From the NCBI GenBank assembly GCA_016927905.1, contig JAFGLW010000004.1, positions 1 to 64,000 on the forward strand: a stretch of 64,000 nt of DNA, in the 5' to 3' direction. Shown here piece after piece: positions 2,711 through 37,577 of this stretch. How positions within the stretch are numbered: the stretch's first letter is position 1; each line of letters starts with the position of its first letter. The position numbers and the translations under genes were made by a program. This DNA comes from a candidate division CSSED10-310 bacterium (GTDB taxonomy: Bacteria > CSSED10-310 > JAFGJC01). The notes under the pieces were generated by a model that saw only the letters and a list, made by a program, of their open reading frames with translations, searched no databases and was not told the DNA's origin.

Positions 2711-4855
2711 ATGGACCGTTTCCGCACGTCATACCGGCATCTGGTTCCCGTAATTGTGTTCTTCTGCGTCCTGCAGATCCTGCTGTTTGCGCCGCGGCTG
2801 AATTCCGACGGCGCCTACTATTTCGAATTCGTTCGTTCCCTGGTCATCCAGAACGACCTGAATTTCGATGACGAACGGGAGTTTTTCACCTGGGAATGGG
2901 TGCCCGTATTCCGCAACTATCTGCCGGGCGACTGGGACAATACCGGATATCCGCCCAACATCTTTTCCTTCGGTCCCGCCGCCGCCTGGCTGCCGGTCTA
3001 CCTTCTTGTTCACTGGTTCGTGCTGCTGGCGAACCATCTCGGGGCTTCGTTTTCGACGAACGGCTACAGCCTGTTGTACCGGTTTTTCCCCCTGCTTATG
3101 TCGCTGTTGTGCGGCCTGGCGGCCCTGTTCGCGATCGACCGGCTGGGGCGGGATGCCGGCTACCGGCCGCCGGACCGGGCGGCAGGACTTTTTCTGATGC
3201 TCGGGGCGTCCCACTGGCCCGCATTCATTTTCGTCACGCCGGCGTTTTCCCATTCCCTGAGCGTGCTGACGGTTTCGATATTTCTTCTGGCCTGGTACCG
3301 GTCTCGCGACGCCGGCTGGAACGGGAAGGGGTATGCCCTGTACGGCGTGCTGGGCGGTCTGGCCGTTCTGGCCAGATGGCAGAACCTGTTCTGCCTGGTT
3401 CTGCCGCTTCTGGATGCCGCAACCTCCCTCGTGTTTTCTCCAGACCGGCGCTCGTTTTTCCGGCGCTTTTTTCGCTGGACCATCTTCAGTGCAGCCCTAT
3501 TACTGACTGTATCCCCCCAGTTGATCGCCACATGGATCCTGTATGGCACGCCCGTCACCGATCCGCAGGGTGAAGGCGGCATGCTCTGGATGTCCCCCCG
3601 GATCCGGTTGATCCTGTTCGAGGGAATCAAGGGATTGTTCACCGTCAACCCGATCCTGCTGGTCGCCACATTGCTGATCCCGCTGATTTTCCGGAAAAAT
3701 CTCCGGCTGGGATGGGGATTGACCGTTCTGTTTGTCATCCAGCTTTATATCAACGCCGTCCGGCGGGACTGGGCCGGCGTGGGATTCGGCATGCGCCGCT
3801 TTTTGAATCTCGTGCCGGTGTTCGCCCTGGGTCTGACGGCGGGTTTCGATTGGCTCCGGACCCGGAGGCGGAAATTTGTCATCGGTTTATGCTGGACCGC
3901 CGGGATTGCCGCGATCGTCTGGAACCTTCTGTTGATGGCGCAATACTATTATTCCGAACTGGGCGCGCCCTGGACGACGTTCCCGCCGTCCGCCATGATC
4001 CGGAACCAGTTCACGGAAGCTCCCGCCCTGCTGGCAAAACTGGTCGGATCCGGCCTGTTCGCATCGGGTCTGCACGGCGATGCCGCCCATCTGATTCTCG
4101 CGGTCGCCGGGTTACTGCTAACCACCCTGATTATCGCCGTTTTCGTCCGTTTGCGACCGGCTGAACCGGCTCTCGACCGGTTATTTCGGCGTCTTCTGTC
4201 CGTCGCCGTGCTGTGGATCGCGGTTCTCGACGGGTGGCTGCTTCTGAGTGCCGGATCGGCGACGATGTTTCATGCGATTGAATTGCTGCCGGGACCACAT
4301 TTCGGAAGGCCGCGGCTGCTGAGGTTGAATGACGCTTCGGGATATCTGGGATTCCCCGGCGGCCTGGTGTTCGGCCCCGGGCCGCGGTTGTGCGTGATGG
4401 ATGTCCGGGCGGAGTATGTCCGGGACCAGTTCCTGGCGCTGGGACGTCTCGCTGTCGAACCGCACCGACCCTGCCGGAACGAAGCTCTCTGGCGATGCGA
4501 ATTTGCTGGACAATTCGACGCCCGCAGCCTGATACTCATCTCCAGGATCCCATCCGGGCCGGTTCCCGCCGGAACGGAGATCGCCGAAATCTCCGTGACC
4601 GATTCGACCGATCGCCGTCATGCATTCCCCGTACGGGCCGGATATGAAACCGGTTCCGGTATTGACAGCATGCGTTCATCCACAACCGACCGGTTGGTTC
4701 GGGACTATCCTGCCGTGAACCGGATGACGACAAACAATACCGCCGATTATCGCGTGACGTTCGATTGGAAGACATCCGTTTCAGTGCGTACACTGGAGAT
4801 CGCATTCCGCGGATATCCGGTCGTCTGGGAAATTCACGGCCTGGCGTTTCGATGA
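2711..4855 (+). CDS. Polytopic membrane protein, putative GT-C superfamily glycosyltransferase (ArnT/PMT-like), with a ~230-aa C-terminal soluble domain.
   Basis: There are about 12 predicted TM helices. NFDDEREFFTW in the first periplasmic loop resembles the DE motif of ArnT/PMT (GT39/GT83). Confidence 0.5.
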   Translation: MDRFRTSYRHLVPVIVFFCVLQILLFAPRLNSDGAYYFEFVRSLVIQNDLNFDDEREFFTWEWVPVFRNYLPGDWDNTGYPPNIFSFGPAAAWLPVYLLVHWFVLLANHLGASFSTNGYSLLYRFFPLLMSLLCGLAALFAIDRLGRDAGYRPPDRAAGLFLMLGASHWPAFIFVTPAFSHSLSVLTVSIFLLAWYRSRDAGWNGKGYALYGVLGGLAVLARWQNLFCLVLPLLDAATSLVFSPDRRSFFRRFFRWTIFSAALLLTVSPQLIATWILYGTPVTDPQGEGGMLWMSPRIRLILFEGIKGLFTVNPILLVATLLIPLIFRKNLRLGWGLTVLFVIQLYINAVRRDWAGVGFGMRRFLNLVPVFALGLTAGFDWLRTRRRKFVIGLCWTAGIAAIVWNLLLMAQYYYSELGAPWTTFPPSAMIRNQFTEAPALLAKLVGSGLFASGLHGDAAHLILAVAGLLLTTLIIAVFVRLRPAEPALDRLFRRLLSVAVLWIAVLDGWLLLSAGSATMFHAIELLPGPHFGRPRLLRLNDASGYLGFPGGLVFGPGPRLCVMDVRAEYVRDQFLALGRLAVEPHRPCRNEALWRCEFAGQFDARSLILISRIPSGPVPAGTEIAEISVTDSTDRRHAFPVRAGYETGSGIDSMRSSTTDRLVRDYPAVNRMTTNNTADYRVTFDWKTSVSVRTLEIAFRGYPVVWEIHGLAFR

Positions 4856-4971: not shown

Positions 4972-5499
4972 ATGAGTCAGGAAATCGAACCGAGAACACC
5001 GGGTAGGGAATTCACAATTCTGGAGACGATCGCCTGTGCGGTGCCCGGAGTCGCAGGGTATTTGAAGAAGGAGAAAGCCCGGGACAGCGATCAGCGGTAC
5101 CGGATGTTTCTGACGGATCGGCTGGCCGGAATTAAAACATCTCTCGAAACATTAAAACGGAGCCGGGTGGACGAATCCGTTCTGGAAGGTCTGGACCGGC
5201 TGGAACGACTCTGCCGGAAGCTGGATCGTGCGATGGATTCGCTCCGGTACGCTGCCCGGGGATATTCCGGAATGTTCGACGGGGTGAAGGTGCGGGAGCC
5301 GGAATTGAAGCGGCTGGAAGGGTATGATCATATGCTGGCCGGATTGATATCATCGATACACATTGCGTCGGGAAAACTGATTGCCGGGACCGGTGCATTC
5401 GGCGATGTCCGGTCCGGCGTGCAATCGATGGAAGACATGCTGGAGGAGTTGATTCATGCAATCGGGCAGCGCCGGCAGGTTCTGGAACATTTTGAGTGA
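4972..5499 (+). CDS. Hypothetical coiled-coil protein, first gene of the SPFH/Zn-ribbon operon.
   Basis: RBS gggaggttg lies before ATG 4972. The protein is helical and charged. Its stop overlaps the next gene's start region. Confidence 0.5.
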   Translation: MSQEIEPRTPGREFTILETIACAVPGVAGYLKKEKARDSDQRYRMFLTDRLAGIKTSLETLKRSRVDESVLEGLDRLERLCRKLDRAMDSLRYAARGYSGMFDGVKVREPELKRLEGYDHMLAGLISSIHIASGKLIAGTGAFGDVRSGVQSMEDMLEELIHAIGQRRQVLEHFE

Positions 5500-5516
5500 T
5501 GGAAGGGGGCACGAAA

Positions 5517-6500
5517 ATGTCTCAATTTATGGAAGTACTCGAATGGTTTGACGATACCGGCAAACAGATGGTGGTTCGGGTTCCGCAGGAGGGTTCGGCG
5601 GAAATCAAGTTCGGAGCGCAGCTGGTGGTGCGTGAAAACCAGGCCGCAGTCTTTTTCCGCGACGGTACAGCTCTGGACACGTTCGGACCGGGTCGGCATA
5701 CCCTGACGACGCAGAACATCCCGCTCCTGACCAAAGCGCTGGCGTTGCCGTTCGGCTTCAAGAGTCCATTCCGGATCGAAGTCGTTTTCGTCAACTGCAA
5801 GATATTCACCGACATGAAATGGGGGACGAAGGATCCGGTGACCTTCCGGGATTCCCAGCTTGGAATGGTCCGTCTGCGAGCTTTCGGGCGGTTCACGACC
5901 CGGATCAAGAATCCGATGCTCATGGTGAACACCCTGGTCGGAACCCAGGGCCTGTTCGCGACCGAATCCATCGAATCGTATCTCAAGGATATCATCGTCG
6001 CGCGCCTGAACGATCTTCTGGGGGAGACTCTGGTGTCGATACTGGACCTGCCCCGTAATTACGATGAACTGGGAGCGGCCGTCCGGACCCGCCTGATGGA
6101 CGATTTTTCGAAGTTTGGCCTGGAACTCCTGGATTTCTTCATCAGCGCCATCACGCCACCGCCCGAAGTGGAGCGGATGATCGACGAGCGGTCCGGCATG
6201 GCCGCGGTTGGAAATCTGGACGATTTTACGCGTTTCAAAGCGGCGAAGGCAATGGGTGATGCCGCATCCGGAAAGGGTGGCGACGGTGCCGGTGAAGGTG
6301 CGGCAGCCGGAATGGGACTGGGTGTCGGTGCCGGTCTGGGGATGATGATTCCCGGGATGATCCGGGGTGCGATGCAGCCGCAGAAAGGATCTCCCGGACC
6401 GCAAACCTCGGAGGGATTCTGCGGCAAATGTGGCGCAGCCCGGCGGCCGGGTGACCGGTTCTGCCCGCAGTGCGGCACGAAATACGACGACCGAGACTGA
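5517..6500 (+). CDS. SPFH/Band-7 family protein (PF13421-like, YdjI-type) with a Gly-rich linker and a C-terminal zinc ribbon.
   Basis: MSQFMEVLEWFDDTGKQMVVRVPQEGSAEIKFGAQLVVRENQAAVFFRDG...FRIEVVFVNCKIFTDMKWGT matches the YdjI-like SPFH family. The C-terminus is CGKCG...CPQCG. The track ORF starts at GTG 5496; ATG 5517 is preceded by the RBS ggaaggggg. Confidence 0.8.
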   Translation: MSQFMEVLEWFDDTGKQMVVRVPQEGSAEIKFGAQLVVRENQAAVFFRDGTALDTFGPGRHTLTTQNIPLLTKALALPFGFKSPFRIEVVFVNCKIFTDMKWGTKDPVTFRDSQLGMVRLRAFGRFTTRIKNPMLMVNTLVGTQGLFATESIESYLKDIIVARLNDLLGETLVSILDLPRNYDELGAAVRTRLMDDFSKFGLELLDFFISAITPPPEVERMIDERSGMAAVGNLDDFTRFKAAKAMGDAASGKGGDGAGEGAAAGMGLGVGAGLGMMIPGMIRGAMQPQKGSPGPQTSEGFCGKCGAARRPGDRFCPQCGTKYDDRD

Positions 6501-6505
6501 GCGGC

Positions 6506-7258
6506 ATGAAAATCGAATGCCCGGCATGCGCCGGTCCCGTGAACATCCTGCCGGATGACCGGTATCTTCGATGCGAACACTGCGATTCAACGATCCACGT
6601 CGAACTCGGCGAATCCCTGAGGCATACCACATTCAAATTGACCGTTCCGGAGGATCATCTGCGCGGTTTGATCGTCAGGGAATTGAAAGAACACGAACTG
6701 CATGAACCGGTATCAATTCGCTCGATCCGTCTCACTTATATTCCTTTCTGGAGATTCAAAACGGATCGAGAGATCCTTTACCGGCCGGCTGCAACCCTTG
6801 TGGAGCCGTTCTGGGACAACTATGTGCCCCGGTCCGGAGAACTTCAGTATTTCGATCCGACCGCGATCGGTCATGCCCAGTTGATCGATCCGGACATCTA
6901 CCTGGAATCCGCACTGGCAAAACTGTCGGATCCCGAGATCGCCGGTCAGGCGGACATGGAGCCGTCGCTTGTTTTCATCCCGTTTTACCGGATTGAGACC
7001 AGCTATGGGCGAACGGCGGTCGCCGTTTATGTTTCGGGTCACTCCGGTAGAATTTTTTTTGACAACCTGCCGCTCGCCCCGGCCATGATGATGAACCGTA
7101 ATCTTGCATTCACGGCGGGTATCGTGTTTTTTTCATATACTCTGGTCACGTATCTGTCGATCCGGTATACCGGGAACTTCCTGATGGTACTGCTGACAAA
7201 CCTGGTGCTTACAGCCGGACTTTACAGGCTTCTGATGAAAACGGTAATCAGGCGATGA
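6506..7258 (+). CDS. Zinc-ribbon membrane protein, paralog 1. It has an N-terminal CxxC-x17-CxxC ribbon, two [hydrophobic]4-P-[FIV]-[WY] motifs, and C-terminal TM helices.
   Basis: MKIECPACAGP...RCEHCDS, then LTYIPFWRF and SLVFIPFYRIE. The ATGA start overlaps the next gene. Confidence 0.55.
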   Translation: MKIECPACAGPVNILPDDRYLRCEHCDSTIHVELGESLRHTTFKLTVPEDHLRGLIVRELKEHELHEPVSIRSIRLTYIPFWRFKTDREILYRPAATLVEPFWDNYVPRSGELQYFDPTAIGHAQLIDPDIYLESALAKLSDPEIAGQADMEPSLVFIPFYRIETSYGRTAVAVYVSGHSGRIFFDNLPLAPAMMMNRNLAFTAGIVFFSYTLVTYLSIRYTGNFLMVLLTNLVLTAGLYRLLMKTVIRR

Positions 7259-8421
7259 TTCCGGTGCAGAAACTGAGTTGCATTCATTGCGGCGGCGCGC
7301 TGGCGCCGGCCCCGGGACAGAAGATCATCCGGTGCTCATACTGCCGGGGAAAAAACCTTTTGCTGCATGATTCGGATTTAGCCAGATACTGCGTCTCGAA
7401 CCGGCTGACCGCCGAAGACGTGCTGGACAGGGTCCGGACGACAATCGCCCGAACACGGGAACAACCCGCCGGACCGGCCGGGAAAATCCGCCTGATGCAG
7501 CCGCATCTTTTCTGGGTACCTTTCTACGAAATCAGCGGAACGAGACTGTCGCGGTTTCTAACGGACAAGTTGAAACAGGACGAAATCCCATTTTCGAATC
7601 TCCGCATGCGCCCGCCCACCCGCGATTGGGCTCCCGGAAGAACGATACAGCCCACATTCCGGGAACAGCTTTCCCGGGCTTCTCCCCATAAGACCATCCG
7701 GGACACCCGTGTGATCCTGGGCGATTTCGCCCTGGATGACCCTGCGGTAAATCTCCCGGAGTGGAATCTGAACCAAATCAAACTGTCCAGAACCCTTCGG
7801 GAAAACAGAGACTGTCCGCTCCAGCCGTTCAGTTTCCGCAGACTGCAGCGCGCGGGAACGGTTCTTCAACCGGACCAGTCTCCGCAGAAATTCGCACAGG
7901 CCCACACATACGTCATGACCGCCAGGACATTGCAGGACAGCCGCATCCTGGAACAGGAAATCAGTCTGGTTTATTATCCTGTCTGGCGGGTTCTTTACTC
8001 TTTTCGAAATGCCGCCTTACCGGTCATGGTGGACGGATTCACCGGGTCCATTCTGCACGCACGGCTGCCAATGAGTGAGACCTTCAGGATACTGGCGTTT
8101 CTGGGTGCAACCGGATCGCTCGGGTTCGGCCTGGGCGTCTTCCTGGCCTTGGCTGCCAGTTTGTGGAAACCATCCGAGATCATGATAAACCTGTTTGTAT
8201 TGATCGGCCTGTCCACGATGGCATTCGGTTTCCTTATTTTCGGAATTATGGCTTTTGCCTGGGTCCACCTGCGATATTCCGCGGAGATCATCATTCGGGG
8301 CGATCGCAGAGATATCCGGTTTGTCGGAAAAACCGGGAGTACGCTGCCCGAGCGATTGTTTGAAAAATTTGCCCGTTGGACGGGTGAGCGGATAACGAGA
8401 GGTCTTGAAAAACATGGCTGA
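7255..8421 (+). CDS. Zinc-ribbon membrane protein, paralog 2.
   Basis: CIHCGG...CSYCRG, then HLFWVPFYEI and SLVYYPVWRV. It has 3-4 C-terminal TM helices and is coupled on both sides. Confidence 0.55.
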   Translation: MIPVQKLSCIHCGGALAPAPGQKIIRCSYCRGKNLLLHDSDLARYCVSNRLTAEDVLDRVRTTIARTREQPAGPAGKIRLMQPHLFWVPFYEISGTRLSRFLTDKLKQDEIPFSNLRMRPPTRDWAPGRTIQPTFREQLSRASPHKTIRDTRVILGDFALDDPAVNLPEWNLNQIKLSRTLRENRDCPLQPFSFRRLQRAGTVLQPDQSPQKFAQAHTYVMTARTLQDSRILEQEISLVYYPVWRVLYSFRNAALPVMVDGFTGSILHARLPMSETFRILAFLGATGSLGFGLGVFLALAASLWKPSEIMINLFVLIGLSTMAFGFLIFGIMAFAWVHLRYSAEIIIRGDRRDIRFVGKTGSTLPERLFEKFARWTGERITRGLEKHG

Positions 8422-9067
8422 CCGCGCGGTCCGGATAGCAGCCTGTACATGCTCCCGGTGCGGCGCCGAACTGGATGGATTGGATAACGACCGGATTTTC
8501 ACCTGCCGGCGATGTTCAATCGGGTTCGACGTATTCACCGAACCCTTCCGTATCCATCCGATCCGGTTTGTCGAACCGGTGCTCCGGGAACCAGCTCCCC
8601 TGATCTATCTGCCGATCTGGCAGTTTCTCATTCGGGCGGAAATTCACGGAAATGATTCCTCCCGGTTGGAAAAAGCAAAAACCGTTTTGCCGGAAAGCCT
8701 GCTGGTCATCGCCTTCAAGATGCACGGCTGGTCGGTGTTCGGCAACCTGAATCTTCTGTATGCAAACCGGCGGGTCGACCTGAAATATGCGGAGGGTGTT
8801 TCCCGGCCGCTGGTGGGATGCAGGCGAACCGGCCTGGCAGCGCAAAGCCTGGTGGATTATATCCTTCTGGCTGCAATCGACAGGACGGTTGATGTAACCG
8901 GGCTGACGCTTGAGATACATACAGACCAGCTGCTGCTCCTGGGATACCCCTACTACGAGCTGGACAGCCGGCTGAAGGATGCCGTCAGCGGTGACGAATT
9001 CCGGTGTATCGCAGTCGACGACCTGGCTGAAATACGTGCAATCGAAGCCGGGACCTCGCGGGATTGA
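8414..9067 (+). CDS. Zinc-ribbon protein, paralog 3 (no TM region).
   Basis: CTCSRCGA...CRRCS, then LIYLPIWQFLI and LLLLGYPYYEL. The ATG start overlaps the upstream stop by 8 nt. Confidence 0.5.
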   Translation: MADRAVRIAACTCSRCGAELDGLDNDRIFTCRRCSIGFDVFTEPFRIHPIRFVEPVLREPAPLIYLPIWQFLIRAEIHGNDSSRLEKAKTVLPESLLVIAFKMHGWSVFGNLNLLYANRRVDLKYAEGVSRPLVGCRRTGLAAQSLVDYILLAAIDRTVDVTGLTLEIHTDQLLLLGYPYYELDSRLKDAVSGDEFRCIAVDDLAEIRAIEAGTSRD

Positions 9068-9164
9068 CTGTTTTCCCTTGCATCCGGTATCGATCCGGAG
9101 ACGATTATGTTTGAAAAAAGTCTGGTTTAGCAGTATACTCTGTCTGTTGCGGAAAGGGCCGAAT

Positions 9165-9758
9165 ATGATTGCCTTCAAATGCAGATATTGCGGAAAGTCA
9201 TACAGCTTTGAAATTTTGCCCATTCCGGATGAGGGGGCGGAATTCAAATGCGCCAAATGCGGTAAAAACAGCCGGCTCCTGAAACGCGGCAAGGTGGTGT
9301 TCTGTATTGGATCGGAGAATTCGGACGAGCTTGAGCAGAGCGCCACCATGGAACTGGCCGATTCCTATCAGTCCGCGGTCGAAGACGCGGTAGCCCCGGA
9401 GGAACTGGAATCCCGGCTGCGCGGCATGTACCCCGAGTTGCCTTACGACACGGAATTCAGGCTTGGTATCGTCAAGGGTCCCGATCAGGGAACGACGTTT
9501 ACCCTGACCAAACCGAGCGTCTCGATCGGCAAATCCGGATGCGACATAAACCTGGCCGACGGGAGAGTATCCAACAAGCACTGCCAGATAGAAATTTACG
9601 GCAATCAGATGATCGTTCTCCGGGATCTGCAAAGCGACGGGGGCACATATCGCAACAACTATCCGACGACCTTGACCTGTCTCCGGCCCGGAGACTCCCT
9701 GCAGATCGGCAACTCCGAGCTGATCCTGATTCAGGCACAGAAAAAACTGGCGAAATAA
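9165..9758 (+). CDS. Zinc-ribbon plus FHA-domain protein.
   Basis: N-terminal CRYCGK...CAKCGK, then an FHA core (VSIGKSGCDINLADGRVSNKHCQIEIYGNQMIVLRDLQSDGGTYRNN). RBS ggaaaggg lies before ATG 9165. Confidence 0.7.
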   Translation: MIAFKCRYCGKSYSFEILPIPDEGAEFKCAKCGKNSRLLKRGKVVFCIGSENSDELEQSATMELADSYQSAVEDAVAPEELESRLRGMYPELPYDTEFRLGIVKGPDQGTTFTLTKPSVSIGKSGCDINLADGRVSNKHCQIEIYGNQMIVLRDLQSDGGTYRNNYPTTLTCLRPGDSLQIGNSELILIQAQKKLAK

Positions 9759-9768
9759 CCTGTCGGGA

Positions 9769-10185
9769 TTAAGCGGAAAAAGCGCCGGCGGGTTCTTCCA
9801 GTGGCCGGCACGCCCCCACAGGACAGATTTCGGCGCATTTTCTGCAGGCGATGCACAGGGCGGGATCAATTTCGAAAAGAAGGTTTTCGGTAATCGCGTT
9901 GGTGGGACATTCCGGCAGGCATGATCCACAGGCGATACATTCCCCTGTGATGAAGTAGGGAATGCGGTCCCGGGGTATTTTCTCTTGATATTTCAGGAGA
10001 TTCACCTGGATTTTTGCCAGTTTGAAATTCCATTCCGCCCGGAGCGATTTCAGGGTGATCCTCAATTCATACAGAGAATTCCGGATTTCATCGATATCCT
10101 CCCCATTCCGGATTCGAGCCGTTCGGTTCACCAGTGCCATTACCAGGGCCACAACCGAAATGATCAAAATAACCGCCGTCCACAT
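9769..10185 (-). CDS. Membrane-anchored 2x[4Fe-4S] ferredoxin-domain protein.
   Basis: It has an N-terminal TM helix and two CxxCxxCxxxCP motifs (CIACGSCLPECP and CIACRKCAEICP). Confidence 0.7.
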   Translation of the reverse strand: MWTAVILIISVVALVMALVNRTARIRNGEDIDEIRNSLYELRITLKSLRAEWNFKLAKIQVNLLKYQEKIPRDRIPYFITGECIACGSCLPECPTNAITENLLFEIDPALCIACRKCAEICPVGACRPLEEPAGAFSA

Positions 10186-10297: not shown

Positions 10298-12055
10298 ATG
10301 GATCGATTCGTGAACCCAGCAGAAAAACCTTCCGGACTGCGAATGGCTGCATTCGTCGGTATGGGTATCGGTACGGGTGTGTTGAGGGGATGCATCGAGG
10401 CTTGGTTGATCGTGGCCCGGTATCCCTTTCGTCCAGGCGGAGATCGATTCATTGAATTGATGATTGAGTGCGCGGTTGCCTATGGACTGGCGGTGGGCAT
10501 ATCCGGCACGGTTCTGGCCTGGCTGATGTCGCGGGTGATCCGGCCCGGTCATCCCTGGAGATATCTCCTGCCTGTCGCATTCCTCGTGGCGATCGTGGCG
10601 ATTGATGTGGCCGGCTGGATCTCCGCACCGGTTTCGCCGGATCTCCTGACCGGGCCGGCACCGGTTTCGGACGGTTTCGCCGGTGACAATATCGTTCTCA
10701 TCACGCTGGACACCTGCCGGGCGGATCATCTACCCATGTACGGATACCCCCTGGCCAATACGCCCTCACTGGCCCGGCTCGCCCTGTGGGGCAGTGTCTT
10801 CCGGGACGCCGTAACCGCCATCCCGGTAACCACCCCATCCCATGTAACCCTCATGACCGGACTGGATCCCCCGGTTCACGGAAGCCGGTTTAATGCCGTT
10901 CCGTTCGAACTGCCGTTCCCGACCCTGGCCGGGGTTCTTTCCGGGCATGGATTGCTGACGGGCGCTTTCATCAGTGCTTTCCCGCTGATGGCAGATGTCT
11001 CGGGTTTACAAAAAGGGTTCACGGTCTATGAACAATTGCTCTGCCCAAGGAAACTGGATCCCCTGTTTTATCGCACGACCCTCATGAAACCTTTTCTGAA
11101 ATCCGGCCCGTTCCGGCCGGCGGAACGACCGGCCGATCAGGCGGTCGATGCCGCGCTGGCCTGGTGGAGCTCCGGCGGCAACCGGTCCCGGTTCACCTGG
11201 ATACATCTGTACGATCCGCACGCGCCCTATGAACCGCCCGAATTGTACCGGCGGATGTTTTCCGATTTCCCGAATGCGCCGGACATGCGGGTTGAAGACA
11301 TCCTGGCGATGAACAGCGGTCCGAATCCGCCGGATGACTTGACGGCGAAGCGTTATATCGAGTGTTATGACGGAGAAATCGCGTTTGCGGATCGGGCAAT
11401 CGGCCGGCTGCTGGGAGAGATTCAACGCCGGGGTGAAGCAGACAGGACATGGATCATCATAACCGCCGATCACGGTGAGAGCCTTGTGGAACATGACTAT
11501 TTCTTTTCCCACGGGGATCATCTTTATGACGTTTCGCTCAGGATTCCACTGGTTTTCTTTAAAAGAGACCGGATCCCCGCAGGGCGGATCCTTACGGGTG
11601 ATGTATCACTCGCGGATATCACGCCGACCCTGCTGAACCTGACAGGCATGATCGATGAGGCCCATCCCTGGAACGGCATGGATCTTACCGGCAGCCTGTT
11701 AGCGGGAGGTCGATTTCCGGAACGCAACATCTATCTTGAAACCGGTTCCGGCGTCTACATTCGGGCTCATGCTGCGCCGGATGCCGGTATCCGGAGAAAG
11801 ACCCGCGGTGTTCGGGCCGGCCCGGCAAAATACATCCTGGATCCGGACGGCCGTGGAAAACTATATCATCTCGGGATCGATCCGGGTGAAAATCACCCGA
11901 TTCATCCCGCCGGTGATGCGGTTGCCTGCCGGATGTCAGCCGATCTGGCGGATTATGTCCGCCGCCGGGAACTTCCCGGCCGGCATCCCCTGCACCTGCC
12001 TTCCCCGGAAACGGTTGACCGGCTGCGCGCATTGGGATATATCGACCCATCATGA
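10298..12055 (+). CDS. Alkaline-phosphatase-superfamily enzyme with an NPP/sulfatase-like fold. It has a Thr nucleophile motif T-T-P-S-H and 3-4 N-terminal TM helices.
   Basis: LITLDTCRADHLPMYGY (metal-site DxxRxD) and VTTPSHVTLMTGLDPPVHG. The TxPxH...TG...HG pattern is like NPP-type phosphodiesterases and unlike the CxPxR of sulfatases. Its stop overlaps the next start (ATGA). Confidence 0.7.
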   Translation: MDRFVNPAEKPSGLRMAAFVGMGIGTGVLRGCIEAWLIVARYPFRPGGDRFIELMIECAVAYGLAVGISGTVLAWLMSRVIRPGHPWRYLLPVAFLVAIVAIDVAGWISAPVSPDLLTGPAPVSDGFAGDNIVLITLDTCRADHLPMYGYPLANTPSLARLALWGSVFRDAVTAIPVTTPSHVTLMTGLDPPVHGSRFNAVPFELPFPTLAGVLSGHGLLTGAFISAFPLMADVSGLQKGFTVYEQLLCPRKLDPLFYRTTLMKPFLKSGPFRPAERPADQAVDAALAWWSSGGNRSRFTWIHLYDPHAPYEPPELYRRMFSDFPNAPDMRVEDILAMNSGPNPPDDLTAKRYIECYDGEIAFADRAIGRLLGEIQRRGEADRTWIIITADHGESLVEHDYFFSHGDHLYDVSLRIPLVFFKRDRIPAGRILTGDVSLADITPTLLNLTGMIDEAHPWNGMDLTGSLLAGGRFPERNIYLETGSGVYIRAHAAPDAGIRRKTRGVRAGPAKYILDPDGRGKLYHLGIDPGENHPIHPAGDAVACRMSADLADYVRRRELPGRHPLHLPSPETVDRLRALGYIDPS

Positions 12056-14332: not shown

Positions 14333-16552
14333 TCAGAATTTTTCAGGGATGGCAGTCAGAACTTCCTGAGCGTTCCGATACCGATCGGCGGGATTTTTGG
14401 CAATCATTTTCATGGTGACGGTGTTCAGCCATTTTGGGACTTCCGGACGGATTTCCCGGGGAGTCGGCGGGATTTTCTCCAGCTGCTGCTCCAGAACTTC
14501 GTTGATGTCCGATCCCTGGAAAGGCATCTGGCCCGTGATCATCTCATACAGGGTGATACCCAGTGAATACAGATCGGACTGCACGGTCGCGGGATCTCCG
14601 TGAATCTGTTCCGGAGCGATATACTCGGGTGTTCCCCGGACCGTTTTGTCCCGTTCGACGTCACCGGATATCCTGGCGATACCGAAATCCACAATGGTCA
14701 CCCGTTCGTTTTCATCGATAAAAATATTCTGCGGTTTGATGTCCGAATGGACGAGTTTTTTCTGGTGGCTGTGGGAAAGCGCCGACAACACCTGTGCAAA
14801 AATTTTATTGATGGATGGAAAGGATAACCGCCCGGACTCCCGTAAAATGCTCTTCAAATCGCGGCCGTAAAGGTATTCCATGGAGACAAACCATAGATTA
14901 CCGGCACGGTTCAGATCATATATTTTGATGATGTTCGGATGCGCCAGCAACCGAGCCAGGGTGACCTCCCGCTTGACCATCTCGATCAGATCCGGATCGT
15001 AGGAATACTTGGGGCGGAGAATCTTCAGCGCGACGGCCAGATTCAATTCCCGGTCCGCAGCCCGGTAAACGATCCCCATTCCGCCCTTGCCCAGCAATTC
15101 AAGCAGTTCATATCGATTGTTGATGACCATCCCGATGGGTAATTCCCCCACTACGGTGTCGCTTTTCTCCGCATTGATCTCTTCGCTCATAGCCGCCAGC
15201 CAGTTCAGATACTGCCGGGCTTCCTTGTAATCCAGCCGGAGATTGACGATTTTCTGGAAAGCCTGGAGAGATTCATCGATGATGCCCTGGTCATAGAGAG
15301 CGCAGGCATATTCATAGATTAGGTCGATATTTTCATTGGATACGGGAAGATTCAGGACGCTGTCCACGTATTTTTTCCCGGTCTCGATTTTCCCCAGGCG
15401 GAAATAACATATCGCCAGCAGTTTCCGAACCGTTCCGGCGGATGGATGATCGTCCGGGACCCTCAGGAGCAGACGGAGCGCTTCGTCGTTCTCTCGGCTG
15501 TTCAGATGCAATTGGGCCGCCCGTGTGAAGTTTTGATTACGGATGTGAAGCTGGATGGCCTTCCCGACAAATCCCAGCTCATCGTATAGATTCGCCGCCG
15601 TTTCGATATTTCCGGCAAGTTCATACATCCGCGCGGCCTTTTCATAGTCACCAGCTCGGAAATACATCTCCGCCGCCAGCATGAAATCACTGACCTTCTC
15701 ATATCTTTCGGCAGCCAGATCGTATTTCCCTGCCTGCTCATAGTTTTCAGCCGCCAGAGACCAGTCGCACTGCTTATCTGCCATTTCGGCCGCCTTCAGA
15801 TGATCGCCCGATTCTCCCGATCTTTTCGCTTCCATCCGGATGGCCTGGCCATAACGGTTCAGCGCTTTCAACAGCCGGATGGACGCGTCCGTGTTTTCCG
15901 CCTGGTCGTAGCATTTCAACGCGGCTTCGGCTTGCCCGGCCTGCTCGTACAATTCCCCGGCCCGGTTCCAATCCCGGAACATTTCATGGATTTCCGCCGC
16001 CCTGACCAGGTTCGGAACCAGCCGCCAGGCTTCCGCAGCACGGAACAAAAGAATCCGGTGCTCCTTGTCGTCGATCCGGGGACCTCCGAATGAATGGGCG
16101 AGCGGACTCTCAAGCTCCGAAGCCTGTTCGAAACACACCGCCGCACTGCGATACATCCCCGCACTCATGTACAGTTCCGCCGCCCTCCGATATTCCATCT
16201 CCTTTTCCATCATCCGGGCAGCTTCCGAAACCACACCACTCTGCTCGAACATTTCAGCAGCATCCCGGAACCGTTTGGCCCGTTTATACATCATGGCCGC
16301 CTGGAAGGTATCGCCGGCCTGTCTGAGCAGATCCGCGGCATGCTTGAAATCGCCGATTTTCCCGTAATGCTCCGCCGCCTGATCGATCAACCCGACGCGT
16401 TCGCACAGTTTGGCAGCCTTCAGAAACAGGTTTTCCCTGACAAACAATTCGATCGCTTTTTCATGATCACCTGCCAGGACATAATATTCCGCCGCCCGGA
16501 GATATTCCTTCCTTCGCTCCAGTTTCCTGGCTTTTTTGATATAATCAGGCAC
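14333..16552 (-). CDS. Ser/Thr protein kinase with N-terminal TPR repeats.
   Basis: The C-terminal Hanks kinase has LGKGGMGIVYRA, HSDIKPQNIFI, DFGIAR and GTPEYIAPE. The N-terminus has about 10 TPR-like repeats. Confidence 0.85.
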   Translation of the reverse strand: MPDYIKKARKLERRKEYLRAAEYYVLAGDHEKAIELFVRENLFLKAAKLCERVGLIDQAAEHYGKIGDFKHAADLLRQAGDTFQAAMMYKRAKRFRDAAEMFEQSGVVSEAARMMEKEMEYRRAAELYMSAGMYRSAAVCFEQASELESPLAHSFGGPRIDDKEHRILLFRAAEAWRLVPNLVRAAEIHEMFRDWNRAGELYEQAGQAEAALKCYDQAENTDASIRLLKALNRYGQAIRMEAKRSGESGDHLKAAEMADKQCDWSLAAENYEQAGKYDLAAERYEKVSDFMLAAEMYFRAGDYEKAARMYELAGNIETAANLYDELGFVGKAIQLHIRNQNFTRAAQLHLNSRENDEALRLLLRVPDDHPSAGTVRKLLAICYFRLGKIETGKKYVDSVLNLPVSNENIDLIYEYACALYDQGIIDESLQAFQKIVNLRLDYKEARQYLNWLAAMSEEINAEKSDTVVGELPIGMVINNRYELLELLGKGGMGIVYRAADRELNLAVALKILRPKYSYDPDLIEMVKREVTLARLLAHPNIIKIYDLNRAGNLWFVSMEYLYGRDLKSILRESGRLSFPSINKIFAQVLSALSHSHQKKLVHSDIKPQNIFIDENERVTIVDFGIARISGDVERDKTVRGTPEYIAPEQIHGDPATVQSDLYSLGITLYEMITGQMPFQGSDINEVLEQQLEKIPPTPREIRPEVPKWLNTVTMKMIAKNPADRYRNAQEVLTAIPEKF

Positions 16553-20065: not shown

Positions 20066-20229
20066 GCCAGTCCTCCTGGAAATTTACTCCCGTATTATCT
20101 ATCATGTTCACCGGTAGAATGAAATGACCATCCGGAAAATCGGGGCACCGGTTTTTCAGGTGCGGAAAGAACCTCCCTTGGCAGCAAACTTGCTTGATAT
20201 CTTCCAAGGTATTTTCACCAGGAGGTGAC

Positions 20230-23200
20230 ATGATGGGTCATATTTGGATTCGATGGATTGCGTTGACGGTCTGTTGCCTGACCGCAGGACCGGTTCTGGC
20301 CGGTCAGGTCGGGGATCATCGCGCGGCTTATCAACGGGCTGTAGACGAAGCCTGCCAGGGCAGGACGGACGGATTGGCGATATACGTATCCGGCGATCCT
20401 CTGCCTGCGGGAGAGGAAATCAAAACCTGGAAGGGAATATTCCTGACTCTGGATACGGCGCAATGGCTGGTTTTTATCGATGAACATCCCGGCGCCAACT
20501 GGGAACATTCCTGCCGGTTTGTCCTGGTGGATCCCGGAACGGGAGTGGTCCGGATGACCCGGGGTACCCGGCCGCCGGAATGTCTGGGAGACATGATTCA
20601 CATGTCCGGTCCCGATATTCTCGGAGGAGAAAACGTGCGGCCCACTCTGAAATCCGCCCGGTCCCCGGCTGCACCCGCCGGCCGGTCGGTCGAGCATCTC
20701 TGGGCGGTGATTCTTTCGGGGGGAGCATCCCAGTACTCCAACTATCCCCGGTACTGGAACGACTGCTCCAGCATCTATACGACGCTGGTGAACGTATACG
20801 GGTACCTGGACGAAAACATTATCGTGGCTATTTCCGACGGAACCGATCCGGCCCCGGACCAGAGTAACGGGGGAAATTCCAATCCGGATCTGGACGGCGA
20901 CGGCGATGACGACATTATGTTCTCCTGTATCAAGACCAATCTGGACATTATTTTCGCCGATCTGGCAACCAACCTGACATCTCAGGATTCGCTGTTCATT
21001 TTCACCACCGATCACGGAAACGGCCAGCTTGGCGTACCGGGTCAACCGACCTCGATGAACCTGTGGAACGGGGAAGAAATCTGGGATTATGAATTCGCCG
21101 CCCTGATGGAGCCCATTCAATGCCGGGAATTCAATGTGGTGCTGGAACCCTGTTTTTCCGGTGGATTCGTCAATGACATCATCGAGATGAACTCGTCTGT
21201 TCCCCGGTCGGTGTCATCCGCGGCGAATGATCATGAATATTCATGGGCCATGGGTCCCGATTATATTTACGACACCTATGTGTTTCACTGGACGGCGGCG
21301 GTAACGGGAGAAGACGCTTTCGGGAATCCCGTAGACGCCGATACCAACATGGACGGCATCGTGGACATGTATGAAGCGTATGTTTACGCCGAGTTCATGG
21401 ATGACGATGACGAGCATCCCCAGTATGACGACTGGCCGGAGGGGTACGGTTCCACAACCAGTCTGTGGGGATCGGGACCGAATTCAGAGGGTGAAGTCAA
21501 GCTCGACCGAACGCTTTACAACTGTGACGATACCATCGAAATCACCGTGGAAGATCTCGATCTGGAAGGCCAAGGTACGCTGACCATCACCATCGATTCG
21601 ACTACCGAACCCGGCGGTGAATCCGTGATTTTGACCGAAACGGATACCGCGCATTTTGAAGGAACGATCGCCACGGGCACCGGGACCTCTTCACCCGACG
21701 GCATTCTCCAGGTCGATCACGGGGATTTCGTCACCGCAACCTATGAAGACGACAATTACGGCGGCCAGGGCCCCATGACACTTACCGATCAGTCGACCGT
21801 CGACTGCCTGGCTCCCGTCATTTCCAATGTCCATACCGACGATATGACCTATCAATCCGCTACGGTTTACTGGACCACCGACGAACCCGCAACGTCCCGC
21901 GTGGAATACGGAATCGACATGGGGCTGGGGACCGTGGTGGAATCGACCGAACCGGTGACCGACCATGCCGTCCTGATCACCGGGCTGGATGACTGCACAA
22001 CCTATTACTTCAAAGTGCTGTCCACCGACCAGGCCGGTAACCAGGCCGAAGACGATAACGGCGGTCTCATGTATTCCTTCCAGACCTGGGAAGTCGTCTA
22101 CCAGTTGAACGAAACCTTGGACTCCAATCCCGGATGGACCATATCGGGAGGTCAGTGGGCGTTCGGCCAGCCGACGGGCGGCGGCGGGGCCTACGGCGGT
22201 CCGGATCCCACCGGAGGATATACCGGCACCAACGTTTATGGCTACAACCTCAACGGCGATTACGCCAACAACATACCCGAATACAACCTGACCACCACCG
22301 TCATCGACTGTTCCGACGCCGAAGGCGTCATCTTTGGATTCCGGCGGTGGCTGGGCGTGGAACGTAATTTTTACGATCACGCCGCTGTCAGGATTTCCAC
22401 CGACGGATCCACCTGGACGACGATCTGGGCGAACCCGGATGCGGAAACGGCCGATACCGCCTGGGTCTATCAGGAATTCGACGTGTCGGCCTATGCCGAT
22501 CACCAGAGCACCGTCTATTTTCGGTGGGTGATGGGAACGACCGATGGCGGATGGACCTATTGCGGCTGGAATATCGACGATGTCATCGTGTACTACTCCA
22601 ATCCCTGCGGAGAACCGACGTCGACACCGCCGGCAACCTGCACACCGACCACGGTCCCCACCGGCACACCGCCGCCGGCCACCCATACACCGGCTCCCCC
22701 CACCCATACACCGGCTCCCCCCACCGACACACCGGCTCCCCCCACCGACACCCCGGTACCGCCAACCAACACGATGATTCCGACCAACACCCAGATTCCC
22801 ACATACACGTCCATGCCGCCGACCGACACCCCGGCCCCGCCGACCGACACACCGGTGCCGCCCACGGAGACGCCTTCCTTTGAAAAGGGGATGGTGCTCA
22901 TGCTGGATGATACGGACCTGACAGCGGGAGACCGGTTTTATCTGCACATGAACCTGAATAATCCCGAACCGGAAGCGTACCAGGCTGATGCGTACGTGCT
23001 GCTGGGTATATGGGGTGATTACTGGTTCTGGCCCAGCTGGATACATATGAGCCAGGGATTGGATTCACAAACGTACAGCATCCCCTCCGGAACCACACCC
23101 AAAGATCTTCTCGACTTCACATGGCCCGGCAATGTGGGACAGGCGGGCAATCTCGAATTCATCGGCTGCCTGTTCCGGCCCGGAAGCTGGAATATGATCG

Positions 23201-23235
23201 GCTCGGTTCAGTACATCAACTGGTCGTACCATTGA
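20230..23235 (+). CDS. Secreted legumain-like (C13, clan CD) cysteine peptidase. Order: peptidase domain, beta-sandwich domain, FN3-like domain, lectin-like domain, Pro/Thr linker, ~115-aa conserved C-terminal domain.
   Basis: It has a signal peptide (MMGHIWIRWIALTVCCLTAGPVLAG). FIFTTDHGNG and VLEPCFSGGF form the His-Gly/Cys dyad of legumain/GPI-transamidase. The PT linker ([13 protein letters not shown]...) is at 22615-22885. The C-terminal domain is shared with the ORF at 37578. Confidence 0.8.
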   Translation: MMGHIWIRWIALTVCCLTAGPVLAGQVGDHRAAYQRAVDEACQGRTDGLAIYVSGDPLPAGEEIKTWKGIFLTLDTAQWLVFIDEHPGANWEHSCRFVLVDPGTGVVRMTRGTRPPECLGDMIHMSGPDILGGENVRPTLKSARSPAAPAGRSVEHLWAVILSGGASQYSNYPRYWNDCSSIYTTLVNVYGYLDENIIVAISDGTDPAPDQSNGGNSNPDLDGDGDDDIMFSCIKTNLDIIFADLATNLTSQDSLFIFTTDHGNGQLGVPGQPTSMNLWNGEEIWDYEFAALMEPIQCREFNVVLEPCFSGGFVNDIIEMNSSVPRSVSSAANDHEYSWAMGPDYIYDTYVFHWTAAVTGEDAFGNPVDADTNMDGIVDMYEAYVYAEFMDDDDEHPQYDDWPEGYGSTTSLWGSGPNSEGEVKLDRTLYNCDDTIEITVEDLDLEGQGTLTITIDSTTEPGGESVILTETDTAHFEGTIATGTGTSSPDGILQVDHGDFVTATYEDDNYGGQGPMTLTDQSTVDCLAPVISNVHTDDMTYQSATVYWTTDEPATSRVEYGIDMGLGTVVESTEPVTDHAVLITGLDDCTTYYFKVLSTDQAGNQAEDDNGGLMYSFQTWEVVYQLNETLDSNPGWTISGGQWAFGQPTGGGGAYGGPDPTGGYTGTNVYGYNLNGDYANNIPEYNLTTTVIDCSDAEGVIFGFRRWLGVERNFYDHAAVRISTDGSTWTTIWANPDAETADTAWVYQEFDVSAYADHQSTVYFRWVMGTTDGGWTYCGWNIDDVIVYYSNPCGEPTSTPPATCTPTTVPTGTPPPATHTPAPPTHTPAPPTDTPAPPTDTPVPPTNTMIPTNTQIPTYTSMPPTDTPAPPTDTPVPPTETPSFEKGMVLMLDDTDLTAGDRFYLHMNLNNPEPEAYQADAYVLLGIWGDYWFWPSWIHMSQGLDSQTYSIPSGTTPKDLLDFTWPGNVGQAGNLEFIGCLFRPGSWNMIGSVQYINWSYH
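22615..22885 (+). repeat. Intragenic imperfect tandem repeats (about 15-24-bp periods) encoding the Pro/Thr linker.
   Basis: Reiterated cacaccggctccccccacc and ccgaccgacaccccggcc units. Confidence 0.7.
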
Positions 23236-26291: not shown

Positions 26292-27260
26292 ATGAAATGG
26301 AACATATTGCTGTTTGCCATCTGGATCGCTTCCGCCGATGCCGGTTCAACCGATCCGCCCAGCCTGATTCCCTGCAGCGCGGAATCGGTTCCGAAACAGG
26401 CCGTCCCGGTTCAACCGGACTGGCTGGAAATGGGACCCGGCATTCTGAGCATGCTGAAGGAGGATTTCAGGGGAGTCAGTACAGTCCGTATTTCCATCGA
26501 CTCGAACCCGGAATCCGGCTCCGCCGCAGATCACCTGGTATTGTATTTTCAGCACCATCCGGTGTGGCTGATGAGTCCTTCCGGGGAATTCAATCCGGGA
26601 GCGGTATTGCTGTACGATCTGTCCGGTATCTCAGAATATCTGCGTCTTTTGCCGATCGATGTCTGGGACAGCCTGGTTTTCGCCTTGGAAAATCCGGATG
26701 ACCTGACCCTGTCGGCGATAACGGTGAAACACAACAATCAGACCATCCTGGACTGGAACGGAACCGCGACACTCACAGGGTCCGGAATTTCTCGACTCGA
26801 CATGGGTATTTCGATCCTGTCTTCAAAACTGTCTCAGTGCCCCGAGACACCGAATGGGATCGCATTCCGCGCGCTCCAGGAACTGGGCAAGGATGATGGC
26901 ACGAAATATGCCGATGAATCCCCGGGAGGCTGGTGCAGCGAATTCGCCGCCTGGGTCCTCCGCCACCACGGCTGGGATACCCCCGCCGGATCGATCGGAA
27001 GCCGGCATATGAGAGATTTCTTCTTAGGATATGACAGGCTGTTCGCCATCGAAGACGTATACAGTGGCGATTACACGATTCAGATGGGGGATTACCTGTC
27101 GATGTTCGACGGCGTCCACAGCGGATTGTTCCTTGCCTATCTGGGACCGCCCGGACCGCCCGGACCCGGCACACGGGTTCTCACCATCGAAGGGGGCAGC
27201 AGGGTCGAATTGTGCACCCGCTGTCTGGAAGATTTCGATCACATCGGGAACGCTCAGTAA
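26292..27260 (+). CDS. Secreted protein with a C-terminal CHAP/NlpC-P60-like papain-fold domain (tentative).
   Basis: It has a signal peptide (MKWNILLFAIWIASADA). GGWCSEFAAWVLRHHGW followed by a downstream DGVHSG resembles a CHAP Cys...His pair. Confidence 0.5.
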   Translation: MKWNILLFAIWIASADAGSTDPPSLIPCSAESVPKQAVPVQPDWLEMGPGILSMLKEDFRGVSTVRISIDSNPESGSAADHLVLYFQHHPVWLMSPSGEFNPGAVLLYDLSGISEYLRLLPIDVWDSLVFALENPDDLTLSAITVKHNNQTILDWNGTATLTGSGISRLDMGISILSSKLSQCPETPNGIAFRALQELGKDDGTKYADESPGGWCSEFAAWVLRHHGWDTPAGSIGSRHMRDFFLGYDRLFAIEDVYSGDYTIQMGDYLSMFDGVHSGLFLAYLGPPGPPGPGTRVLTIEGGSRVELCTRCLEDFDHIGNAQ

Positions 27261-27349
27261 ACCGACCGATACCGGAACTGCCGGAAATGGTATGTTTTGC
27301 CTGTCCCGGGTGGATTTCCCCCTCACCGGGAATTGACAAATCAAGGGAC

Positions 27350-31155: not shown

Positions 31156-31833
31156 ATGCCTTCGATGAATCTCGTAATGGTATTGAAAAGGTCGGATCTG
31201 TTCGCGGATGTGGGAGATTCCCATCTGAAGGCGATTTTGAGCGGCAGCCGGATGAGACATTATGAAAAGAACGACTTCATTTTTTTCGAAGGCGATGAAG
31301 GCAGCGCATTCTATCTTCTGGTGGAGGGTTCGGTAAAGCTGGCAAAATCCTCCGCAGACGGCCAGGAAACACTGGTCAAACTGGTCCGGCCGGGTGAAGT
31401 ATTCGCCGAGATCATTCTGTTTGAAAAAAGCGGCTATCCGGTCACCGCCGAATCCGCAGGGCCTTCGAAAGTCCTTGAAATATCCAGAAAACATTTCCTG
31501 ACGCTGCTCGACGACACCGGTTTCCGGAATGAATTCATCGCGCTGCTCATCCGCAGGCAGCGATATCTTGTAAACCGGATTCTGGTTCTGACGGCATATG
31601 ACGTGGAAGAACGTTTTTTCATGTTTTTACGGGAGCGATACGGAGCGCATCAAACCTATCGTATCGACGTATCCAAACAAGATATGGCGTCAGCCATCGG
31701 CACAATTCCGGAAACGTTTTCGCGAATGCTGAAACGGTTGAAAACAAATAAAACTCTTCGATGGACCGGCAAAACATTGCATCTGGCATCCGGGTTCTGG
31801 GAAAACCGCGAGGATCATGACCGAAAGGCATAA
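31156..31833 (+). CDS. Crp/Fnr-family transcriptional regulator, likely HcpR-type.
   Basis: It has a cNMP-binding-like beta-roll (FIFFEGDEGSAFYLLVEGSVKL) and a C-terminal HTH (MASAIGTIPETFSRMLKRL). It is divergent from hcp. Confidence 0.8.
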   Translation: MPSMNLVMVLKRSDLFADVGDSHLKAILSGSRMRHYEKNDFIFFEGDEGSAFYLLVEGSVKLAKSSADGQETLVKLVRPGEVFAEIILFEKSGYPVTAESAGPSKVLEISRKHFLTLLDDTGFRNEFIALLIRRQRYLVNRILVLTAYDVEERFFMFLRERYGAHQTYRIDVSKQDMASAIGTIPETFSRMLKRLKTNKTLRWTGKTLHLASGFWENREDHDRKA

Positions 31834-37444: not shown

Positions 37445-37577
37445 TTCATTTGCTCGTTTTTGCATCACCGGATTAATCGAAATAGCGGAAAAGTCCATCT
37501 CCTGACAGAGTGTTTGGCAGCGTTTTTGCTTCAAACAGTGGTATCGTGTGTATTTTGATCTGTTCAGGAGGTGGATT

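Follow-up and report, generated by a model that had tools for sequence, protein, structure and literature searches.

SPFH/flotillin-like proteins and the Psp response play a central part in the homeostasis of bacterial membranes. To our knowledge, the YdjI branch of the SPFH proteins has been studied only in Bacillus subtilis, and its role there is entangled with that of PspA. The present analysis concerns a group of genes at positions 4972-9758 of a 64,000-nucleotide stretch of contig JAFGLW010000004.1 (referred to here as the window), from a metagenome-assembled genome of the uncultured candidate division CSSED10-310, which an earlier reading of the window (the original prediction) had likened to the B. 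subtilis pspA-ydjGHI operon. The soluble YdjI of B. subtilis reaches the membrane only with the help of both YdjG and YdjH, and there it recruits PspA (PMC8581546). YdjG was described by Ravi et al. as two zinc ribbons followed by an uncharacterised YpeB-related or NTF2-like domain and a transmembrane (TM) segment (PMC11237479). A 2026 preprint proposed that SamI, the alternative name of YdjI, restrains signalling by a membrane complex of SamG and SamH (YdjG and YdjH), the signalling being ascribed mainly to SamH (bioRxiv 10.64898/2026.02.06.704340).

The core of the locus is a five-gene cassette (gene 1-SPFH-P1-P2-P3), which is a real conserved operon in many bacterial phyla and, by homology, is a distant relative of the B. 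subtilis ydjGHI module that has neither PspA nor YdjH. The proposed likeness to pspA-ydjGHI (pspA-samGHI, sigma-W envelope stress) therefore stood for the YdjI and YdjG components, two of the four, but not for PspA and YdjH, which are absent, and gene 1 is not a PspA. In both systems a soluble SPFH protein of the Band_7_1 type (YdjI/SamI) ends in a zinc ribbon that follows a linker rich in Gly and Met. Both also have a protein of the YdjG/SamG type, which carries zinc-ribbon sequence at its N-terminus, two conserved PFW-type hairpins in its core and a TM region at its C-terminus, and in both the genes are packed tightly into a single operon. Unlike pspA-ydjGHI, the window cassette encodes neither PspA/IM30 nor a TPM-domain protein (YdjH/SamH), and its SPFH gene comes before the YdjG-like genes instead of after them. 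It encodes three paralogs of YdjG, of which two have TM hairpins and the third is soluble, and each carries one zinc ribbon in place of the two in YdjG. It also has a new predicted four-helix-bundle protein, gene 1, as constant partner, and is spread over many non-Firmicute phyla. The HflK/C-FtsH, QmcA/YbbK-NfeD and FloA/FloT-NfeD operons are similar in placing an SPFH scaffold gene beside genes for small membrane partners, and large membrane oligomers are expected for them as here. In contrast to HflK/C, QmcA and FloA/FloT, the SPFH protein of the window itself lacks any TM segment or hairpin and is a member of Band_7_1 (PF13421), not of the classical Band_7 subfamilies, and its partners are zinc-ribbon YdjG-like proteins rather than NfeD or a protease. 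A description of the cassette was not found in the searchable literature, including searches for PF13421, Band_7_1 and LIMLP_15305.

Six open reading frames (ORFs) of the window's ORF list lie on the + strand within 4972-9758, with gene starts chosen from inspection of the junctions and comparison with orthologues:

4972-5499, + strand: gene 1, 175 amino acids (aa), with a GGAGG ribosome-binding site.
5517-6500, + strand: SPFH gene (gene 2), 327 aa, start given by the gene caller as ATG 5499; Band_7_1 domain at about 5595-6203, then the Gly/Met-rich linker and a zinc ribbon at about 6417-6482.
6506-7258, + strand: P1 (gene 3), 250 aa; zinc ribbon 6518-6583, YIPFW motif 6737-6751, FIPFY motif 6974-6988, predicted TM helical hairpin 7079-7249.
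7255-8421, + strand: P2 (gene 4), 388 aa; zinc ribbon 7279-7344, the two hairpin motifs separated by a long insert, two predicted TM segments at about 8089-8274, conserved cytoplasmic tail.
8414-9067, + strand: P3 (gene 5), 217 aa; zinc ribbon 8450-8515, first LIYLPIW hairpin, distinct C-terminal part ending G-x-P-[FY]-[YF].
9165-9758, + strand: zinc ribbon-FHA gene (gene 6), 197 aa, start given by the gene caller as TTG 9111; zinc ribbon at about 9180-9260, linker, FHA domain at about 9519-9710.

The true starts are most likely 5517, 6506, 8414 and 9165 rather than those of the longest ORFs. As originally read, the P1 stop and P2 start share ATGA at 7255-7258 and P2 and P3 overlap by 8 nt at 8414-8421. 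A 17-nt spacer separates gene 1 from the SPFH gene, which becomes a 1-nt overlap with the gene 1 stop if ATG 5499 is used, and the SPFH-P1 spacer is 5 nt. The gap between P3 and gene 6 is 43-97 nt depending on the start (TTG 9111 or ATG 9165), and because of this gap gene 6 is not translationally coupled. Of the six-gene translationally coupled operon first proposed, the six genes on one strand were retained, while overlaps are present only among genes 3-5 and gene 6 is set apart. A CxxC...CxxC pair was present in each of genes 2-6, in agreement with the five consecutive zinc-ribbon genes of the original prediction, and these cysteines were invariant or nearly so in family alignments of P1, P2, P3 and the FHA protein. 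TM-like segments were confined to P1 and P2 among the six proteins. In a promoter scan, promoter-like matches were no commoner than in shuffled sequence.

The same five-gene order recurred in unrelated contexts among the loci of P1 relatives for which orthology was checked (L004, L006, L008 and L090), so that the co-conservation expected of these genes was borne out by the neighbourhood mapping. The cassette lies near MutS and glycosyltransferase genes in L004, near RNase Y/YmdB and ExoVII in L006, and near GAPDH/PGK/TIM and DAGK in L090. A 1093-aa gene with weak N6_Mtase/Eco57I matches (type IIG restriction-modification-like) is located between the SPFH gene and P1 in L008 (L008:4669-7950), where the cassette is otherwise intact around it. 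Tight gene spacing recurred, and the P2/P3 overlap was also found in L002, L003, L008 and L090. All six genes are present in L002, which is a syntenic relative. In L003 (L003:5838-11398), from a close relative of the window genome, gene 1 and the SPFH gene are absent while P1-P2-P3-FHA is kept, and the upstream gene for a 714-aa membrane protein ends 18 nt before P1. Two short contigs, L091 and L092, have P1-P2 downstream of unrelated genes.

Relatives of the SPFH protein were present in at least 565 species-level genomes in a scan of one genome per GTDB species, and the best 80 of these (50-66% identity) were taken for a census. The 80 loci come from Thermodesulfobacteriota, Methylomirabilota, Acidobacteriota, Nitrospirota, Chloroflexota, Clostridia, Binatota, Gemmatimonadota and others. 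Gene 1 was directly upstream of the SPFH gene in 71 of 79 census loci by hidden Markov model (HMM) scans. At least 3.6 kb of downstream sequence was available for 52 loci, and in these the downstream partner was a P1-P2-P3 triplet in 12 and a single fused protein in about 21 (about 40%), with 2 ambiguous. The fused protein is about 440-580 aa long (most are 480-530) and consists of an N-terminal TM-less P1/P2-like module, with a zinc ribbon and two hairpins, and a full P3-like module at the C-terminus. Examples with no predicted membrane anchor include L010, L015, L016, L020, L030, L034 and L037 (L037:3812-5317). The distance between gene 1 and the SPFH gene was about 1.2 kb in L047, L066, L071, L076 and L087 (some Blastocatellia, Clostridia and others), a spacing that implies an extra gene between them; no P-family gene follows in these loci. 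The triplication pointed out in the original prediction is not peculiar to the window genome; it is ancient and widespread, and P1, P2 and P3 form separate orthologous groups in distant phyla.

The YdjI-type nature of the SPFH protein was well supported. It matched Band_7_1 (PF13421) with an E-value of 1.6e-66 and 224 bits against a cut-off of 24, PF01145 with 3.5e-14 and 53.7 bits against a cut-off of 23.6, and Zn_Ribbon_1 at the C-terminus with 1.5e-6, and no TM segment was found in it. The protein aligned with B. subtilis YdjI end to end in BLASTP (27% identity over 324 aa, E 1e-30), and the alignment takes in both the linker rich in Gly and Met and the zinc ribbon at the end. By these comparisons it is, as had been predicted, of the YdjI type: a soluble protein with a Band_7_1 domain and a zinc ribbon at its C-terminus. 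The C-terminal tail of the SPFH orthologues is modular (L004:6980-7990 compared with window 5517-6500, L006 and L008), in that the shared Gly/Met-rich linker leads into one, two or four zinc ribbons, or into a SHOCT domain in their place.

None of P1, P2 and P3 had a meaningful match in Pfam, NCBIfam, PADLOC or PHROGs. A word-indexed search for P1 homologues returned the query alone and an exhaustive HMMER search of representatives was used instead, which gave 184 cluster representatives, most of them about 250 aa with full-length matches and all named "hypothetical protein". In an alignment of 53 members, C23, C26, P80 and P159 of P1 were invariant and C5, C8, W82, G181 and P189 nearly so. 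The two copies of a hydrophobic-P-[FIV]-[WY] motif noted in each of the three proteins were conserved, with invariant prolines at P80/P159 in P1, P89/P242 in P2 and P67/P179 in P3. A confident AlphaFold 2 (AF2) model of P1 was built with the 53-member alignment and has a predicted local distance difference test score (pLDDT) of 94.2 and a predicted template modelling score of 0.81. It shows a zinc ribbon of four strands and an alpha/beta core in which the motifs sit on two long beta-hairpins (strands 69-85/90-94 and 152-167/170-177), and residues 192-248 form a helical TM hairpin at the C-terminus. Hydrophobic windows cover residues 279-340 of P2, and thus the prediction that P1 and P2 end in TM helices agrees with both results; no TM segment was found in P3.

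Profile comparisons with hhalign aligned the P1 and P2 families over 212 columns (99.9%, E 6.9e-32), with the large P2 insert placed after the first hairpin, while P3 aligned with the P1 family over the zinc ribbon and first hairpin only (96.9%, E 1.7e-10). The YdjG query for the profile comparison that had been suggested was a verified sequence, being 100% identical to one database entry and 99% to B. subtilis entries, with ends that agree with published ydjG primers. Its locus in B. subtilis read PspA (PF04012)-YdjG-TPM_phosphatase (YdjH)-Band_7_1 plus zinc ribbon (YdjI). The P1 family aligned with the YdjG family from the second YdjG ribbon through the TM region (98.5%, E 1.8e-15, 218 columns), P2 aligned with YdjG at 98.2% (E 2.9e-14), and B. 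subtilis YdjG matched P2 orthologues directly in phmmer down to 9.8e-9. These alignments identify P1 and P2 as clear paralogs and true YdjG/SamG homologues with predicted C-terminal TM hairpins, and P3 as a divergent, soluble and remote paralog of the two. The paralogy proposed for all three thus stands for P1 and P2 and, in this limited form, for P3, and the zinc-ribbon component is YdjG-like as suspected.

Gene 1 belongs to a family of 164-177 aa proteins with members from the window lineage, Methylomirabilota/Rokubacteria and others. The family alignment shows a PGxxGY..E..R..D...R motif near the N-terminus and RGYSGxFD in mid-protein, and the AF2 model consists of four long helices (pLDDT 81.7). 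The coiled-coil protein of the original prediction is accordingly not a plain coiled coil, its helical character being that of a conserved four-helix bundle with sequence motifs. The suggested tests against PspA/Vipp1 and YdjH profiles were negative, with hhalign probabilities of 0.2% for B. subtilis PspA and 0.1% for YdjH. PspA, Vipp1 and ESCRT-III were not found for the family in Pfam scans of 19 members or in a profile search of PDB sequences, and the PspA/Vipp1 assignment was rejected on the hhalign value and the lack of a Pfam or PDB-sequence match. Apart from one distant relative, gene 1 had no meaningful Pfam, NCBIfam, PADLOC or PHROGs match. The exception was the Leptospira family NF047596 (LIMLP_15305), a profile of the same length as gene 1 that aligned over 142 of 175 positions with an E-value of 9.5e-9; at 35.4 bits gene 1 falls far under the equivalog cut-off of 210 and is a distant relative only of this family, which is itself a hypothetical protein. 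On the structural model, gene 1 is a soluble predicted four-helix-bundle protein of a new conserved family.

Four-helix bundles include membrane-targeting proteins that gene 1 resembles, and with its sub-threshold Pfam match to Rx_N (0.017) this raises an anti-phage or abortive-infection system, in which the SPFH-zinc ribbon protein would sense infection and gene 1 would be a membrane-disrupting effector. The N6_Mtase/Eco57I-like gene inserted in the L008 cassette and the toxin-antitoxin pairs just upstream in the window are also in keeping with defence. However, the fold of a four-helix bundle is generic and the Rx_N match lies far under its cut-off, PADLOC-DB v2 gave chance-level zinc-ribbon matches only (E at least 0.013) and PHROGs no meaningful match for the six proteins, and no P2 homologue was found in 72,556 plasmids or 50,697 phages. 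Elsewhere the flanking genes are housekeeping ones such as MutS, RNase Y/YmdB, ExoVII and GAPDH/PGK/TIM. A defence role is for these reasons considered very improbable.

We lean instead towards a reading in which the five-gene core would build an SPFH complex of the YdjG/YdjI (SamG/SamI) type, associated with the membrane and serving as a scaffold or in surveillance, that is independent of PspA and YdjH. The homology, architecture and co-conservation of the cassette are observed, while its interactions and a function in stress are deduced by analogy with Bacillus. In such a complex, P1 and P2 would anchor the SPFH oligomer to the membrane on its cytoplasmic side. A soluble adaptor would be provided by P3, which in many genomes is fused to a TM-less P1/P2-like module. 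Gene 1 may be a client or regulator of the SPFH assembly, taking the place in the operon that belongs to PspA in Bacillus. The zinc ribbon-FHA add-on of CSSED10-310 may connect the P1-P3 module to Ser/Thr-kinase signalling, which is the weakest step of the proposal.

Several observations weigh against this scaffold reading. YdjH, and not YdjG, is the proposed direct anchor in Bacillus (PMC8581546). No TPM match and no PspA gene were found in Pfam scans of the six window proteins, and neither PspA nor YdjH homologues were found in any of the 80 SPFH loci (for YdjH, by phmmer within +/-7 kb). No solved homologue of the P1 core fold was found. The YdjG-like partner of the commonest variant is TM-less and therefore TM tethering is not general. 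No P-family gene was found nearby in 17 of the 52 loci, and because of these loci, and of L003, L091 and L092 where P genes occur without an adjacent gene 1-SPFH pair, the gene 1-SPFH and P sub-modules are separable. Clustering of the downstream ORFs in loci without P genes gave no shared alternative partner. One apparent cluster among them was discarded as shadow ORFs inside the SPFH gene.

The persistence of the P1-P2-P3 module in L003, L091 and L092, with the FHA gene also retained in L003, speaks for a second arrangement of the same parts, in which P1-P3 would in themselves be a membrane-integral stress sensor or signal transducer, perhaps acting on transcription through TFIIB-type ribbons or through the FHA protein, and the SPFH protein and gene 1 would be only a brake. 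This is a serious alternative, as it corresponds to the model in which SamI restrains SamG-SamH (bioRxiv 10.64898/2026.02.06.704340) and relatives of YdjG are annotated as TFIIB-type zinc-ribbon proteins. It is nevertheless thought unlikely, since the proteins have no DNA-binding domain beyond a single zinc ribbon of a type that often mediates protein contacts, the signalling in Bacillus is put mainly on SamH, which is absent here, and no output domain or regulator is conserved beside the cassette.

The sixth gene was less securely part of the system. Its product matched the FHA domain (PF00498) with an E-value of 1.1e-11 and 45.5 bits against a cut-off of 20.7, and also Yop-YscD_cpl (7.8e-14) in Pfam, and its N-terminal ribbon is MJ0042/Zn_ribbon_4-like. 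The best NCBIfam matches were FhaB/FipA and OdhI at about 1e-10 to 1e-11, all far under the equivalog cut-offs. Gene 6 is like the FhaB/FipA and OdhI/GarA adaptors in its C-terminal FHA domain and differs from them in its N-terminal zinc ribbon, a Gly-Lys in place of the canonical Gly-Arg and an unconserved Asn. Residues were placed on what we take to be the consensus phosphothreonine (pThr) pocket of the FHA family. S136 and H139 (Ser-x-x-His) were invariant in the three orthologues, the Gly-Arg is Gly-Lys (K123) in all three, and the S-x-N-G loop is S-[DTN]-[GF]-G in all three, with the Asn not conserved (G159-G160). A Lys in place of the Arg might still bind phosphate, and the FHA domain of gene 6 may be atypical or non-phospho-dependent. 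FHA orthologues were detected only in L001-L003, the window's lineage, and in none of the 80 SPFH loci, and the FHA gene is thus a lineage-specific neighbour outside the conserved cassette. The phospho-Thr reader described as attached to the operon therefore keeps its FHA domain, which is over the Pfam threshold, and loses the canonical Arg and Asn and any general association with the cassette. The two Ser/Thr kinases noted elsewhere in the window were found at 14333-16552 (- strand) and 59182-61668 (+ strand), both fused to TPR repeats. Their domain orders are opposite (TPR-kinase and kinase-TPR).

It is quite possible, if a little doubtful, that the FHA gene and the kinases are unrelated to the cassette and that gene 6 is transcribed on its own and owes its position to local synteny within a single lineage. 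The 43-97 nt gap contains a sigma-70-like match at 9111-9139, although promoter-like matches were no more numerous than in shuffled sequence and the gap, between genes on the same strand, has no terminator-like site. The pThr-pocket substitutions, the absence of the gene from cassettes outside L001-L003 and the equal synteny of the flanking genes in the window lineage would all fit such a neighbour, but gene 6 has an N-terminal zinc ribbon like those of the genes upstream of it. It is also still beside P3 in L003, a locus without gene 1 and the SPFH gene, and because of this position an FHA association, if any, is with the P module.

Other features of the window surround the cassette. Two toxin-antitoxin pairs, MazE/PemK and nucleotidyltransferase/HepT-like, are located at about 1304-2700 (coordinates from gene calls on an identical Logan contig, offset 147), just upstream of a gene at 2711-4855 for a 714-aa polytopic membrane protein with a sub-threshold Glyco_transf_22 (Alg9-like) match. 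The latter gene lies directly upstream of the cassette only in the window lineage (L002, L003). Convergent with the FHA gene is a gene for a 138-aa protein with an N-terminal TM segment, a helical linker and two 4Fe-4S motifs (9769-10185, - strand), and its position is kept in L002 and L003. Sulfatase-superfamily genes are present at 10298-12055, 27212-29365 and 31817-33685, the first encoding N-terminal TM segments and lying ahead of genes for a B12-binding radical SAM protein and a methyltransferase, and this sulfatase/radical SAM neighbourhood resembles one for envelope or lipid modification. Two very large predicted proteases, of 1013 aa (Peptidase_C13, 20194-23235) and 1618 aa (Peptidase_C25, gingipain-like with a propeptide, 37548-42404), are also encoded.

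In its boldest form, which we put forward tentatively as rather improbable, the proposal is that gene 1-SPFH and the YdjG-like proteins would make up a distinct and widespread membrane-surveillance machine, with the four-helix gene 1 protein rather than an ESCRT-III/PspA protein as effector or client, and with P1, P2 and P3 as a hetero-oligomeric platform that is membrane-anchored in the triplet form or soluble in the fusion form and that is wired to Ser/Thr-kinase signalling through the zinc ribbon-FHA protein in CSSED10-310. Whichever wiring applies, the alternation between a TM-anchored triplet and a TM-less fusion constrains any mechanism. The orthologous groups P1, P2 and P3 and the gene 1 family, until now hypothetical proteins, gain names, and the cassette offers a natural PspA-free system for the function of the SPFH-YdjG module by itself. 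The pairing of YdjI with YdjG is much older and wider than the Firmicutes, and usually occurs without PspA or YdjH and with gene 1 as its constant partner.

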